DNA of 63,889 nt, counting the filler, from an uncultured Methanosarcinales archaeon (GTDB taxonomy: Archaea; Nanobdellota; Nanobdellia; Woesearchaeales; CAYZNE01), in NCBI GenBank assembly GCA_964405295.1. It is 7 parts of 7 records of this genome, joined end to end, with 100 filler letters (N's around TTAATTAATTAA, not from the genome) between each part and the next. Parts side by side here need not be neighbours in the genome. Positions count along the whole stretch, not along the records: positions 1 to 14,440 come from CAYONI010000014.1; positions 14,541 to 24,596 come from CAYONI010000017.1; 5 more parts are not named here. The stretch is one strand, 5' to 3'. The translations under genes were made by a program, and so were the position numbers. How positions within the stretch are numbered: position 1 is the stretch's first letter; each line of letters opens with the position of its first letter. Below are positions 11,671 through 15,919 of the stretch, piece by piece. The notes under the pieces are model-generated. The model did no database searches and was not told the DNA's origin. It saw nothing but the letters and a program-made list of their open reading frames with translations.

Positions 11671-12369
11671 ATGAAACTGCCAAAAAAAGATATGTGGTTT
11701 ATTCTTGCAGCATACAATGAAGAAAAGAGTGTTGCTAAAACAATTAAAGATCTACAAAGTAAAGGCTATTTTAATCTAGTTGTTATTGATGATGGCTCTC
11801 AGGATAAAACTTTTGAAAAAGCTAAAAAAGCAGGTGCAATAGCTCTTCAACACAGAGTAAATTTAGGCCAAGGTGCAGCACTCAGAACAGGAACAGACTA
11901 TGCATTAAAACATGGAGCAAAATATATTATACATTTTGATTCAGATGGCCAACACAGAACTAAAGATATATCTGCAATGATAATGCCTGTGCTTAAAAAA
12001 GAAGTTGATATAACACTTGGGTCAAGATATATTAATAAAACTATGAAAACAAAGATGCCATTTAGAAGAACACTATATGTTAAAGGAGGATTGATATTCA
12101 CAAAAATAATGACTGGATTAAAATTAACCGATACTCACAATGGCTTTAGAGCTATGAATAGAAAAACTGCAAAAAAATTAGAAATAACACAAGACGATAT
12201 GGAGCATGCTTCTGAAATATTGGAGTTAATTGCAAGAAAAAAAATAAAATATAAAGAAGTCCCAGTTATAATAGAATATAATGATGAAATCATGCAGAAT
12301 TCCATGAATAGTTTTGGAATGGCTATCAAAATAATTCTTAGAACGATATATTATAAGTTGTTCAAGTAG
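11671..12369 (+). CDS. GT2 glycosyltransferase (Dol-P-Man synthase-like)
   Basis: AAYNEE, VIDDGSQD, NLGQGAAL, FDSDGQH, DTHNGFRA. Confidence 0.92.
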   Translation: MKLPKKDMWFILAAYNEEKSVAKTIKDLQSKGYFNLVVIDDGSQDKTFEKAKKAGAIALQHRVNLGQGAALRTGTDYALKHGAKYIIHFDSDGQHRTKDISAMIMPVLKKEVDITLGSRYINKTMKTKMPFRRTLYVKGGLIFTKIMTGLKLTDTHNGFRAMNRKTAKKLEITQDDMEHASEILELIARKKIKYKEVPVIIEYNDEIMQNSMNSFGMAIKIILRTIYYKLFK

Positions 12370-12373
12370 AGAT

Positions 12374-12487
12374 TTACTATCTTAAGGTGAGCTGATTAGA
12401 AATTTACTAAAAGTGCGTCGTCGAGGGTCGTGTCTTACGGACCGGCAGCACAATCAAACAATAAATGTATTCAGCGAAAGATAGTAA
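12374..12487. ncRNA. 114-nt structured intergenic element, copy 1 (family unknown)
   Basis: Homologous to 15806-15919; terminal stem TTACTATCTT/AAGATAGTAA; compensatory changes between copies. Confidence 0.7.
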
Positions 12488-12537
12488 GGATTAAGAGTTC
12501 ATAAATTATATAAACAAAATTCTAAATACATAAAATT

Positions 12538-13530
12538 ATGAAAATTCTAGTTACTGGAGGGGCAGGCTACATTGGAAGCCATTTTCTTAAAGAGCTGAGA
12601 GATACAGGTTATAATTCTGAAGATGTTTTGATTATAGATAATCTAAGTAGAGGATTTAAAGAAAATATTATTTTTGGTAATTTTATTGAAGCAGATATCA
12701 AAGACGCACATCAAATTGAAACAATAATTTCTGATTTCAAACCTGAGCTAATTGTTCACTTCGCAGCATTAATCTCTGTTCCAGAATCAGAAAGAGAACA
12801 AATGAAGTATTACAATAATAATGTTGTTGGTAGCGTAAATTTATTGAATGCAGCAATCAATAATAATGTTAAAAAATTCATTTTTTCTTCTAGTGCAAGT
12901 GTTTATGGCCCAACAAACATTGTTCCCACGCCTGAAGACACCCAATTTGATGCTAAAAGCAGATATGCAAAGGATAAAAAAATATTTGAAGAAGTATTGA
13001 AAGATAAAAAAGCTCAAGGTAATGATTATAACTATATAATTTTAAGATATTTTAATGTTGCAGGTTCAGATCCAGAATTAGAAGTGGGCAATAGAAAAAA
13101 AGACCCTGAAAATCTTATTTCTATAATCCTAAATAATTTAGTAAATAAGAAATACGAGATAAATGTTTGTGGAACTGATTATGAAACAATAGATGGAACA
13201 GGGGTAAGAGATTATGTTCATGTTTCAGACATAGCAAAAGCACATATGAAAGTTATTCCCCTATTGGATAAAGGTGATTATATTTTTAATGTTGGTTATG
13301 GTGAAGGATCTTCTGTCCTAGAAGTAATTCATGAAGTTGAAAGTGTTACAGGAATTCAAATAAAAAGAAATTTTATTGAAAGAAGAGCTGGAGATATTGC
13401 GACTTCTATAGCAGATAATTCTAAACTTATGAAATATACTGACTGGAAACCCAAATATAATGATCTAAGATCAATGATTAAAAATGAATGGGATTGGAGA
13501 AGAAAGATGACAAGAGAAAAGAAAAAATAA
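12538..13530 (+). CDS. galE: UDP-glucose 4-epimerase
   Basis: GGAGYIGSH, FSSSASVYG, YxxxK, LRYFNVAG, DGTGVRDYVHV. Confidence 0.93.
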   Translation: MKILVTGGAGYIGSHFLKELRDTGYNSEDVLIIDNLSRGFKENIIFGNFIEADIKDAHQIETIISDFKPELIVHFAALISVPESEREQMKYYNNNVVGSVNLLNAAINNNVKKFIFSSSASVYGPTNIVPTPEDTQFDAKSRYAKDKKIFEEVLKDKKAQGNDYNYIILRYFNVAGSDPELEVGNRKKDPENLISIILNNLVNKKYEINVCGTDYETIDGTGVRDYVHVSDIAKAHMKVIPLLDKGDYIFNVGYGEGSSVLEVIHEVESVTGIQIKRNFIERRAGDIATSIADNSKLMKYTDWKPKYNDLRSMIKNEWDWRRKMTREKKK

Positions 13531-13579
13531 TTAATCTAATTCTTTCCTAAGAATGTTGACTTTATTAAAAACTAGATTA

Positions 13580-14407
13580 TTAGCTTAATTTTTTATTAGT
13601 CTTTCTTTTTGGTAAAAAGTTATTCTTAGAAATAAGATTCTGTCCAAGATTATCTTCTATGTCTTTTCTTGTTCTTTTTGCAATATTTCCACCTTTATTG
13701 GCTGAATCTTTACATTCTTTAAATCCTTGCGAATCTTTTTCTTTGGTAATGTCTGTTGTTGCCTTTTCTCCTATCATTGTAAGAATTAATTCCCAATCAG
13801 TCATATGATCTCTTAGATTTTGGTTCTTTCTTTGCAATTGTTTAAATTCTTTATATTCTCCGACAGTTTTTCCAAAAGTTGCATTAGAAATCTCATTAGT
13901 CAGTATTGAAAACTCTTTTTTTGTTTTTATTTCTCTATTCGCCCATTCCCCTGTTAATTCTTGGCGAATTGCTATTCCTCGAATTCTTTTATCAATCCAT
14001 TCTTTAGGATATCCTTTGAGTTCATAATATTTTTTAATTCTATCCTGTCCTAATTCAGGATTTTCTATTTCTTCTATTCTTTCATATCCTACTTGTGCTA
14101 ACCATTGTTTGAATGGTTCTGCCTTTTTAGAAGGAATTGATTGTATTATTCTAAATATATTCTTAGTATTTGCACAATCTGTAAATCTCATTTTGCCATC
14201 TGTGGCTAGTAATTTCAAGTGTACGATTTTATCGTACAGTTCAAATCCTTCTTGGGAAAGTTTGGTTTTAAGATCCGACCAATATCTTTTAGGTATAGAA
14301 CTTGTTTCTAATGCACTAATAATATCAATTACTGAGAAATACCATTCATCTTTATGCCAAATTCTTCTTATTTTTTTGTGCTCAAAAACACAAAATCTTT
14401 TTGGCAT
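13580..14407 (-). CDS. Bro-N domain (phage antirepressor-like) protein
   Basis: IRRIWHKDEWYFSVIDII, IIQSIPSKKAEPFKQWLA, NLRDHMT; start uncertain at the contig edge. Confidence 0.88.
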   Translation of the reverse strand: MPKRFCVFEHKKIRRIWHKDEWYFSVIDIISALETSSIPKRYWSDLKTKLSQEGFELYDKIVHLKLLATDGKMRFTDCANTKNIFRIIQSIPSKKAEPFKQWLAQVGYERIEEIENPELGQDRIKKYYELKGYPKEWIDKRIRGIAIRQELTGEWANREIKTKKEFSILTNEISNATFGKTVGEYKEFKQLQRKNQNLRDHMTDWELILTMIGEKATTDITKEKDSQGFKECKDSANKGGNIAKRTRKDIEDNLGQNLISKNNFLPKRKTNKKLS

Positions 14408-14440
14408 GTCAGAATTCTTTGAATTCTTCACGTCTTGAAA

Positions 14441-14540
14441 NNNNNNNNNNNNNNNNNNNNNNNNNNNNNNNNNNNNNNNNNNNNTTAATTAATTAANNNN
14501 NNNNNNNNNNNNNNNNNNNNNNNNNNNNNNNNNNNNNNNN
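14441..14540. other. Artificial contig-joining spacer (also at 24597-24696, 33882-33981, 43064-43163, 51806-51905, 60204-60303)
   Basis: N runs enclosing the all-frame stop linker TTAATTAATTAA; gene content changes abruptly across most spacers. Confidence 0.98.
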
Positions 14541-14550
14541 AACAAAAAAA

Positions 14551-14633
14551 CGCCACGGATGAGATTTGAACTCATGCTCCCAAAAGGGACGGGATTAGCA
14601 ATCCCGCGCAATACCAAACTATGCGACCGTGGC
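14551..14633 (-). tRNA. tRNA-Ser(GCT)
   Basis: Reverse complement folds as a cloverleaf: acceptor GCCACGG/CCGTGGC, anticodon arm CGGGA-TTGCTAA-TCCCG, long variable arm, TTCAAAT T-loop; no encoded CCA. Confidence 0.95.
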
Positions 14634-14674
14634 ATATTTAAATAGAAACAGAGTTTATTTTTAAAGTTAATCTT

Positions 14675-14845
14675 TTACCATCCATCAGAATTGTCAACAA
14701 TTTTTTGTGCAGAATGACTATCTTGAGTGACTTCTTCAATCATATCTGATTCTGAGCCACAATTAGGACATCTTATTGTTCTATTTTCTCCTAATAGGAA
14801 TGAGAACTTGCATTTTAGACATTTATACTTTTTTCTTTCAACCAT
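14675..14845 (-). CDS. Small zinc-ribbon protein
   Basis: CLKC...CPNC; ATG at 14845 with AAGGAG SD. Confidence 0.75.
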   Translation of the reverse strand: MVERKKYKCLKCKFSFLLGENRTIRCPNCGSESDMIEEVTQDSHSAQKIVDNSDGW

Positions 14846-14930
14846 ATCTCCTTCTGGGCATTGGTTATATTTAAATTTAGCGGTTATTAAACCCAAAACA
14901 CATTTAAATCCTAACAAGAACACTATTACT

Positions 14931-15803
14931 ATGGCAGATAATGAGTTGAAAGAGTTATTCATAACTAAGATTATAGATAAGAGAGAATTATTACATATTA
15001 ATAGGTCTTTTGTCAGTAAAGAACTGGCCCTTTTTCTTCTGCAAGAAAAGAAATTATTCCTTAAAGTTAAAGAAAAGTTCAAGGCTGATAAGAAAAGAAC
15101 AACTAAATCTAAGGAGTTTAAGACAATAGTTAAGCATGTTAGATCTAGATTAAGAGAACTGTTTGGTGTGTTTTACGCCAGAGGTTTTGAGAGTACAGGG
15201 CAGTTAGTAAATTCGATAGTTGCAGGAAATGCAGAAGAGGTTGCATTTGAACTATTAAAGTTACATAGGTCTTCTAAGGAAAGATTGAGATATTATGAAG
15301 AGATATATGATGCTATTGCGAGAATAATCAAGATTAAGCCAAATGTGATTCTGGATTTGGCATGTGGATATAATGGTTTTAGTTACTTTTTTATGAAGGA
15401 GAGTTTCCAATCTTCCCCTGATTATGTTTGTTGTGATTTAAGTAATAAAGATGTTCTTCTATATAGCAAGTTTTTTCAGAATGCAGAGATAAAAGGTAAT
15501 GCTTTTTACTGTGATCTTACTGTAGATATTAGTAAGGCAAAAAAAGTAAAAGCAGACATTTGTTTCTTGTTAAAAACTCTAGATTCTATAGAAAGTGCAT
15601 CAAGAAATTCTTCTGAAAGGTTACTAAAAGAGATAAACACTAAGTATTTTGTTGTTTCTTTTCCAACTAAAAGTATTGGTGGAAATAAAACTATTGCTAA
15701 AAGTAAAAGAGCTTGGTTTTTCAAACTTTTAGAAAGATTAAACTACGCTTATGAAGAGTTTTCTATACATAATGAGATCTTCTTTGTTGTTAAGAAGAAG
15801 TAA
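14931..15803 (+). CDS. FmrO/ArmA/Rmt-like 16S rRNA m7G1405-type methyltransferase homolog
   Basis: HRSSKERL, ILDLACGYN, LLKTLDSIE, VVSFPTKSIGG and NEIFFV match family motifs. Confidence 0.8.
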   Translation: MADNELKELFITKIIDKRELLHINRSFVSKELALFLLQEKKLFLKVKEKFKADKKRTTKSKEFKTIVKHVRSRLRELFGVFYARGFESTGQLVNSIVAGNAEEVAFELLKLHRSSKERLRYYEEIYDAIARIIKIKPNVILDLACGYNGFSYFFMKESFQSSPDYVCCDLSNKDVLLYSKFFQNAEIKGNAFYCDLTVDISKAKKVKADICFLLKTLDSIESASRNSSERLLKEINTKYFVVSFPTKSIGGNKTIAKSKRAWFFKLLERLNYAYEEFSIHNEIFFVVKKK

Positions 15804-15805
15804 TT

Positions 15806-15919
15806 TTACTATCTTAAGGCGAACTGGTTAAGGAGATATTATTGAGTGCGTTGTCTGGGTTGTGCCTTACGGGCAGACAGCACCATAGAATTAAATATTG
15901 ATTCAGTGAGAGATAATAA
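15806..15919. ncRNA. 114-nt structured intergenic element, copy 2
   Basis: Same length and conserved blocks as 12374-12487; fills the gap between two convergent stop codons. Confidence 0.7.

Follow-up and report, generated by a model that had tools for sequence, protein, structure and literature searches.

The REP/REPIN, ERIC, Correia and BOX repeats are intergenic palindromes with modular growth, and integron attC sites have RYYYAAC...GTTRRRY ends, keep one orientation and lie between cassette genes. Prokaryotic MITEs such as Coxiella QMITE2 are non-coding, shorter than 500 bp and bounded by terminal inverted repeats; their direct repeats fade with age, their targets are AT-rich and intergenic, they form a stable stem-loop, and transposases of insertion sequences (IS) act on them in trans (consulted parts of PMC10969869). 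In archaea, the Sulfolobus MITE SM3A measures 164 bp, depends on ISC1058 and persists without its partner transposase (consulted parts of PMC3718332). A MITE census, as far as consulted, counts 105 MITEs per Mb in a single Woesearchaeote (10.1101/2024.01.18.576219), so that abundance by itself would not be new in this group.

We analysed a window of 63,889 nucleotides, the whole stretch of DNA joined from seven contigs of one genome (G000), in which an earlier note had reported two copies of a structured 114-nt element. Both are real, each is 114 nt long, and they lie on different contigs (C14 and C17), starting 4 nt (copy 1) and 2 nt (copy 2) after plus-strand stops (the ORFs end at 12369 and 15803), with copy 2 between convergent genes as the note had it; the genome as a whole holds 11 copies rather than two, all of them intergenic. 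We consider the two copies probable members of a non-coding, non-autonomous, MITE-like family of mobile DNA in Woesearchaeales that carries a conserved structured core. Their features are as follows.

12368..12374, plus strand: possible imperfect direct repeat of 6-7 nt left of copy 1, partner at 12487-12492, seen by eye and of low confidence
12374..12487, plus strand: copy 1 of the element, consisting of the core with no IS-type outer ends and flanked by galE and a glycosyltransferase gene
12375..12395, plus strand: left arm of the basal module of copy 1, comprising basal stem, 1-base bulge, T-A pair, AAGG bulge and upper stem, the tandem GA being internal to the upper stem
12413..12451, plus strand: apex module of copy 1, comprising a 4-bp stem, G and Y bulges, a 4-5-bp stem, an 8-nt G-rich bulge (12424-12431), a 3-bp stem and a TTACG loop (12435-12439)
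12471..12486, plus strand: right arm of the basal module of copy 1
15806..15919, plus strand: copy 2 of the element, between the convergent genes for an Rmt-like methyltransferase and RNase P component 4
15846..15883, plus strand: apex module of copy 2, with a 7-nt G-rich bulge and the hairpin GCC-TTACG-GGC

Like REP/REPIN, ERIC, Correia and BOX, the element is intergenic, palindromic and modular in its growth, but it has no constant terminal tetranucleotide or TA duplication, and no linked RAYT/Y1 gene was found. It resembles prokaryotic MITEs in size, lack of coding capacity, targets, fold and, in its end-bearing members, terminal and direct repeats, and differs from them, as far as the consulted parts of the source describe them, in that a single conserved and covarying core is combined with ends from either of two unrelated transposase families, or stands without ends, so that the Woesearchaeales family is defined by its core and not by its ends (PMC10969869). 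SM3A is likewise a short archaeal non-autonomous element, but it has one partner IS, and the consulted parts of its description include no cross-family structured core (PMC3718332).

Copies 1 and 2 alone are thin evidence for a fold, since the fold of each taken singly has a weak advantage over shuffles (z of -1.5 and -0.9 for the plus-strand RNA) and both sides changed in just 2 of the 27 pairs of their two-sequence consensus. The covarying hairpin stems that the note had read from them are strongly supported by a ten-copy alignment (nhmmer, E <= 2.4e-7, next match 3.2), in which 93.5% of cells are paired and 16 of the 26 pairs changed on both sides; none of 500 shuffles reached as high, and slid controls paired at most 51%. 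The core, of about 105-115 nt, consists of basal and apex modules at fixed spacing, joined by linkers of free sequence, with 27 nt from apex end to bulge in most copies. Some details of the fold needed correction: the basal stem is present, but the 3' basal arm of copy 2 reads GAGATAATAA and not AAGATAGTAA, and the apex bulge module is conserved, but T6 pairs with A35, leaving G5 and Y7 bulged. Linker-linker pairing is unsupported in this genus (p 0.4-0.6) and gave p=0.15 for RNA and p=0.011 for DNA in other families.

The core is multicopy, sits between genes at unrelated sites and in both orientations, and has been gained and lost between congeners. Of 101 related genomes, 20 gave matches and 81 did not, and a wider set gave 25 of 150, the positives in both sets all belonging to one order (Woesearchaeota-type); forms of the element range from about 107 to 450 nt. 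Of the copies at syntenic positions, 23 of 27 in the nearest congener (G002) and 7 of 8 in another (G001) are missing from the source genome, one site of which keeps only a remnant, and in the MCM-RPA gap the element has been inverted in place. Orientation relative to the upstream gene is random (sense in 29 of 62, p=0.70), and no recurring neighbour gene was found, the neighbours being housekeeping genes. Recent bursts are seen in nine equal-scoring copies in one genome (G302) and in a near-identical pair (L062/L063). The label 'Methanosarcinales' stands on 12 of 80 titled loci. It was not taken as a sign of spread across phyla, as five genomes so labelled are of 1.1-1.5 Mb and one of these five shares match coordinates with a same-order genome. 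Two core patterns gave 0 matches in viral contigs, and the element was unmatched in plasmid and phage collections.

At the two sites themselves, about 120 nt at copy 1 are absent in a related contig, and the same site in the nearest congener holds a diverged copy; the size of the possible direct repeat at copy 1 agrees with that difference. At the copy 2 site two congeners lack 114 bases, making copy 2 a net insertion of 114 nt, in which about 2 bases at most are duplicated and no 8-9-bp target duplication is seen; stop codons adjoin it on both sides. Neither copy has IS-type ends, only a basal stem of 9-10 bp that varies in sequence. The element is thus short, non-coding and multicopy, with empty sites in relatives, and terminal repeats shared with autonomous IS are found in the family and not at copies 1 and 2.

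In other families the core is enclosed by either of two kinds of transposon end: IS66-type ends (GTA..) with 8-bp duplications (8 bp in 35 of 40) or IS5-type ends (GGC..) with 9-bp duplications (9 bp in 17 of 27). Among 109 copies from these families, 39 have a duplication of at least 8 nt beside an inverted repeat, against 0 of 600 controls. Both end types are identical or nearly so to terminal inverted repeats of intact transposase-bearing elements, the IS66-type ends matching autonomous L285, L297 and L298 (IS66 above cut-off) and the IS5-type ends matching L250, L251, L246/L247 and L309 (best family NF033579 IS5), which we take from their end sequence to be IS903-like; ISC1058, the partner of SM3A, is also of the IS5 family. 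These autonomous Woesearchaeota elements (the IS66 of single-transposase type) thus match end-bearing members in terminal repeats and duplication lengths but, unlike them, do not carry the core in full; no complete core was found in the autonomous IS, RT or Y1 loci. The IS5 ends seen around the core also enclose other hairpin cargoes. In the source genome, the IS5-like gene has a right end only, while the contigs that bear the IS66 and RT genes are short, and the GC of two of the three looks foreign.

The hairpin MITE/REP-type element that the note had offered as one option is thus backed by the copy number, the empty sites, the transposon-type ends and the target duplications, these last being of typical length (8 or 9 bp) in end-bearing members. 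The end-bearing copies would be moved in trans by cognate DDE transposases, and the core appears to have changed ends at least once; its apical loop may also take up additional hairpins, and copies may swap modules. Copies 1 and 2 are end-less members, probably immobile now in this genome, that would derive from end-bearing MITEs after end loss or from a subfamily whose route of insertion was less strict. The fold most likely acts at the level of DNA, not as a host RNA gene: a DNA hairpin, single-stranded or cruciform, could align both ends and present conserved extrahelical bases to a protein.

Some observations sit poorly with a MITE. Standard MITE theory leaves the invariant bulges and the fixed 27-nt spacing unaccounted for, copies 1 and 2 have no IS-type ends, strict duplications are few in this genus, and no two copies within one of its genomes are more than 86% alike. 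DDE_Tnp_1 is present in 8 of 20 positive and 30 of 81 negative genomes and IS66 in 4 of 20 and 12 of 81, neither showing family-level co-occurrence with the element; none of the 101 genomes yielded IS1595, and IS6 was rejected as partner for want of both co-occurrence and matching ends. The family-typical duplication of 8 or 9 bp in end-bearing members is variable or absent in this genus, where 7 of 67 copies pass a strict test (lengths 8 to 16), and an end-plus-duplication call is absent at 128 of 197 loci.

We therefore weighed a core that is itself a mobile structured element, its bulges recognised by a putative enzyme (reverse transcriptase, HUH or recombinase), which we judge unlikely, though the stronger of the two rivals. 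Such a core would insert into AT-rich gaps and small IS-derived palindromes with variable-length duplications, so that the IS ends are colonised hosts in which it hitch-hikes; equally doubtful is its form as a SINE-like/REP-like hyperparasite of archaeal transposons, read by its enzyme through both the bulges and the fixed spacing and possibly moving by reverse transcription of an RNA copy. A self-mobile core would fit the end-less copies of this genus, of which 33% of 67 have at least 7 of 8 direct-repeat matches against 12% of controls (p=3e-4), with repeats varying in length and end position, and a 19-nt repeat that flanks an end-less copy of another family (L065). The core also occurs in many different wrappers, its tree needing 8 end-type changes of which at least 3 are forced by starred branches, but an AU test does not reject a single clade of IS5 type (p=0.13). 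Kin are not independent. RVT_1, one of five families tested, occurs in 9 of the 20 positive genomes and in 12 of the 81 without the element (p=0.006, uncorrected), but the core has no linked enzyme gene: a transposase is adjacent at 1 of 243 loci (a Y1, on the opposite strand), no model match lies near 12 RT and 20 Y1 loci, nothing convincing was seen near 20 further stretches, and the RT of the source genome is likely foreign, its 4-kb contig having 43% GC where the genome has 31.5%. Nor do the linkers appear to serve as guides for flanks, as a rule matching neither their own flanks nor the genome above shuffles; guides of bridge RNA, box C/D or H/ACA type gain no support from that comparison.

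The least probable of the three readings, and to us an improbable one, is a dispersed functional RNA (an sRNA bound by L7Ae, or a stabiliser or terminator in the 3' UTR) kept by the host or by insertion sequences, its spread by transposon ends being secondary. UNCG is a stable RNA loop, and the element's loops are UNCG-like; covariation is strong, unpaired bases are conserved, and even same-site copies of two congeners differ by compensatory changes. In three IS elements a weak apex-like piece of 27 nt follows the transposase stop on the sense strand (E 0.02, 0.09 and 4.7); such a piece lies within the 3' UTR of some elements of IS5/ISH3-like type. Where copies were selected by pattern, G-U in the apex outnumbers A-C by 17 to 4 with the bulged column set aside, a hint of strand preference, whereas the 69 genus copies give no significant excess (86:67, p=0.15). 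Against a host RNA stand the random orientation, the patchy presence and frequent loss, and the MCM-RPA inversion; the new ncRNA or 3'-UTR motif that the note had put first is therefore unsupported (sense in 29 of 62, not found in 81 of 101). Rfam gave no relevant match for copies 1 and 2 at the gathering threshold or at E <= 5, and none to 20 loci including long variants (Rfam 15). The suggested likeness to SRP helix 8 is put down to chance, the true SRP RNA gene lying elsewhere (G000:C4:76511-76782). Promoters of sigma-70 type and terminators were also looked for and not found, a scan that says little about archaea.

The kink-turn proposed for the GA/GA motif does not hold either. A kink-turn has tandem G-A, A-G pairs directly adjoining a 3-nt bulge, whereas here the bases flanking GA/GA (5' of GA, 3' of the opposite GA) pair in 10 of 10 copies (7 U-A, 3 C-G), so that the tandem GA lies inside the helix, with this covarying Y-R pair between it and a 4-nt bulge. 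Outside the genus the GA/GA is mostly Watson-Crick, at 123 of 196 loci against about 30 of GA type in a rough regex count.

RAYT-mobilised REP/REPIN elements were rejected, as no core lies near the fetched Y1 loci and many members carry duplications (Y1 in 10 of 20 positive and 25 of 81 negative genomes, p=0.12), and integron attC sites fail on variable ends, random orientation and housekeeping neighbours.

A MITE-like family with a structured core removes a false ncRNA candidate, and covariation among such repeats can mislead RNA-motif screens of DPANN genomes. The family is large and undescribed in the literature searched, which included few subscription journals; supplements of the census may list its copies without describing them (10.1101/2024.01.18.576219). 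Its conserved unit is the folded middle and not the transposase-binding ends, and this core is tied to two unrelated transposase families with testable signatures of end and duplication. If the end-less copies do move themselves, they would represent a new mobility mechanism in streamlined archaea.

Both copies of the 114-nt element were confirmed where the earlier note had placed them, on contigs C14 and C17 of the window's own genome (G000; 1.27 Mb, 31.5% GC). These copies, and two other genes of the window, are:

12374-12487, plus strand: copy 1 of the element
13580-14431, minus strand: gene for a putative BRO-N-like protein
14727-15803, plus strand: Rmt-like gene
15806-15919, plus strand: copy 2 of the element

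In NCBIfam the Rmt-like gene, a surprise for a DPANN archaeon, matches best to the Rmt family of 16S rRNA G1405 N7-methyltransferases (E 3e-35; 122 bits, under the 250 cut-off). Its true start is probably downstream of the listed GTG, and congeners G001 and G002 preserve synteny at its 3' end. The BRO-N-like gene has many divergent relatives within the same marine runs.

Neither window copy matched Rfam, and the pair from which a fold had been read is by itself weak evidence for one (shuffle z -1.5 and -0.9; both-side changes in 2 of 27 pairs). A profile search recovered 10 copies in G000, with a clear gap above background, and an eleventh came from a covariance model; its basal module is retained and its apex is different. 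Over the ten copies the proposed covarying stems were borne out, with 93.5% of cells paired and 16 of 26 pairs changed on both sides, a pairing that neither shuffles nor slid controls approached; 82 copies from other families gave 88.4%, in an alignment already fitted to the model.

Every bulge of the core is on the left arm, and its linkers are free in sequence and fixed in length (the right linker is 27 nt in 26 of 35 and 62 of 91 parsed copies). The basal module opens with a variable stem of 7-13 bp, followed by a single-base bulge, one T-A pair, an AAGG-type bulge of 4 nt and a stem of 8 bp. In the window's genus a tandem GA sits in this last stem, separated from the bulge by one pair, and outside the genus Watson-Crick pairs mostly take its place (123 of 196 by a rough regex), which together exclude the kink-turn suggested earlier. 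In the apex module a 4-bp stem leads to a bulged G, a T-A pair and a bulged Y, after which come a stem of 4-5 bp, a bulge of 8 nt (GGGGWYGY), a 3-bp stem and a loop of five bases. Most loops read CTACG, ATCCG, TTACG or ATACG (172 of 226 parsed copies, a base conservation that is overstated because many of these apexes were selected with a pattern containing these very bases). The final base of the GGGGWYGY bulge covaries with the opening base of the loop, as like bases. The apical loop accommodates extra hairpins, of 34-35 nt in two G000 copies and elsewhere bringing the element to as much as 450 nt. Between them, the L348 right flank and loci L093, L151 and L172 show tandem duplication of an element's left end and hairpins inserted into the right basal arm, evidence that the arms take inserts as well.

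The earlier note had offered either a structured RNA or a hairpin MITE/REP-type element. G-U pairs against A-C numbered 86:67 in 69 genus copies, an excess that is not significant and is as expected of a palindrome decaying on both strands; apexes of pattern-selected copies gave 17:4, pointing weakly the opposite way. Compensatory pairs could arise without selection by arm-to-arm template switching, which would not, however, maintain the bulges. The genes beside copies are unrelated to one another, and orientation is random (sense to the upstream gene in 29 of 62).

Model R1 matched 20 of 101 relatives, with hits per genome running up to the limit of 37 scored candidates, and a broader model, R2, matched 25 of 150 genomes sampled from the phylum, all 25 in the window's order. 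In genome contigs an apex pattern found at least 122 stretches, in metagenomes at least 121, and in the viral contigs searched none. Those of loci L072-L139 that are labelled 'uncultured Methanosarcinales' come from small genomes with Woesearchaeota-like gene order, and the label looks wrong.

In G002 and G001 the gap that holds copy 2 is shorter by 114 nt, the comparison being limited to these two since G003 is not syntenic there. At the copy 1 site a related contig of run X1 (~83-88% alike, depth 4) is ~120 nt shorter, and G002 has a diverged copy, 70% alike, whose differences include compensatory ones. A syntenic G000 site could be paired for 35 of the 58 copies of three congeners (G001-G003), and was empty for 23 of 27 G002 copies and 7 of 8 G001 copies; at least one such site retains a remnant, so the element is lost as well as gained between congeners. 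In the MCM-RPA gap the G002 copy is inverted, yet the G000 copy there resembles it more closely than any other copy.

Of 109 copies in other families, 39 had an inverted repeat plus a duplication of at least 8 nt (control, 0 of 600). Among 197 distinct loci, 35 of 40 with GTA-type ends had an 8-bp duplication and 17 of 27 with GGC-type ends a 9-bp one; 128 yielded no call of ends with a duplication. The GTA type matches intact IS66-family elements scoring above the family cut-off (L285, both ends and an 8-bp duplication; L297, left end; L298, both ends), and the GGC type matches intact IS5-family elements (L250, L251, L246/L247, L309), whose best family was NF033579 in those scanned (over the cut-off for L250 and L246, slightly under for L251). 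Thus two unrelated DDE families supply ends within which the core is carried. A tree of 100 of the 220 cores, those with a single end type called on both sides, needed 8 end-type changes vs 33 when shuffled, at least 3 of them forced by starred branches. The tree rests on a short alignment in which at least one label, that of L078, is wrong through a regex error, and it does not reject a single IS5 clade (p = 0.13). One exchange of ends by the core is certain, and several are likely. These IS5 ends also hold hairpin cargoes of other kinds: at loci L516-L535 (mainly G056) they surround several families of branched hairpins assembled from recurring modules, with 9-bp duplications. IS66-type L285, L297, L281, L283, L286 and L299 have a small conserved ORF directly upstream of their single transposase.

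The window copies are without IS66-type or IS5-type ends. In their genus, 7 of 67 copies passed a strict duplication test (lengths 8-16; control, 2 of 600), and a relaxed test gave repeats in excess (33% vs 12%). The length difference between filled and empty sites exceeded the model hit by a median of 9 nt (range -4 to 23; 19 clean pairs hand-picked from the syntenic comparison), and copies inside one genome are at most 73-86% alike. End-less genus copies fit old MITEs with eroded ends, or the product of a second, looser insertion route.

No enzyme partnering the core emerged from 243 loci inspected for a neighbouring transposase (one adjoined) or from five families tested for enrichment in element-positive genomes, of which RT alone showed it (9 of 20 positive against 12 of 81 negative genomes, p = 0.006 uncorrected); the RT of G000 looks foreign. 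L307, L260 and L306 each carry, behind the transposase stop, a stretch weakly resembling the apex. The short G000 contigs C54, C83 and C93 look as if they do not belong to the bin; they bear an RT gene (43% GC) and three-gene IS66 elements (47% and 30% GC). L234 / L562 (G000 contig C5) is an intact IS5-like transposase of 363 aa with only its right end recognisable, and its close relatives in other genomes have single ends too.

Our literature search found no account of this core; a published report already describes high MITE density in a Woesearchaeote (10.1101/2024.01.18.576219). The element works like a MITE, the family showing most of the features tested for membership, as set out in two sources (PMC10969869; PMC3718332), and the two window copies, which fail on the ends, are best called end-less members.
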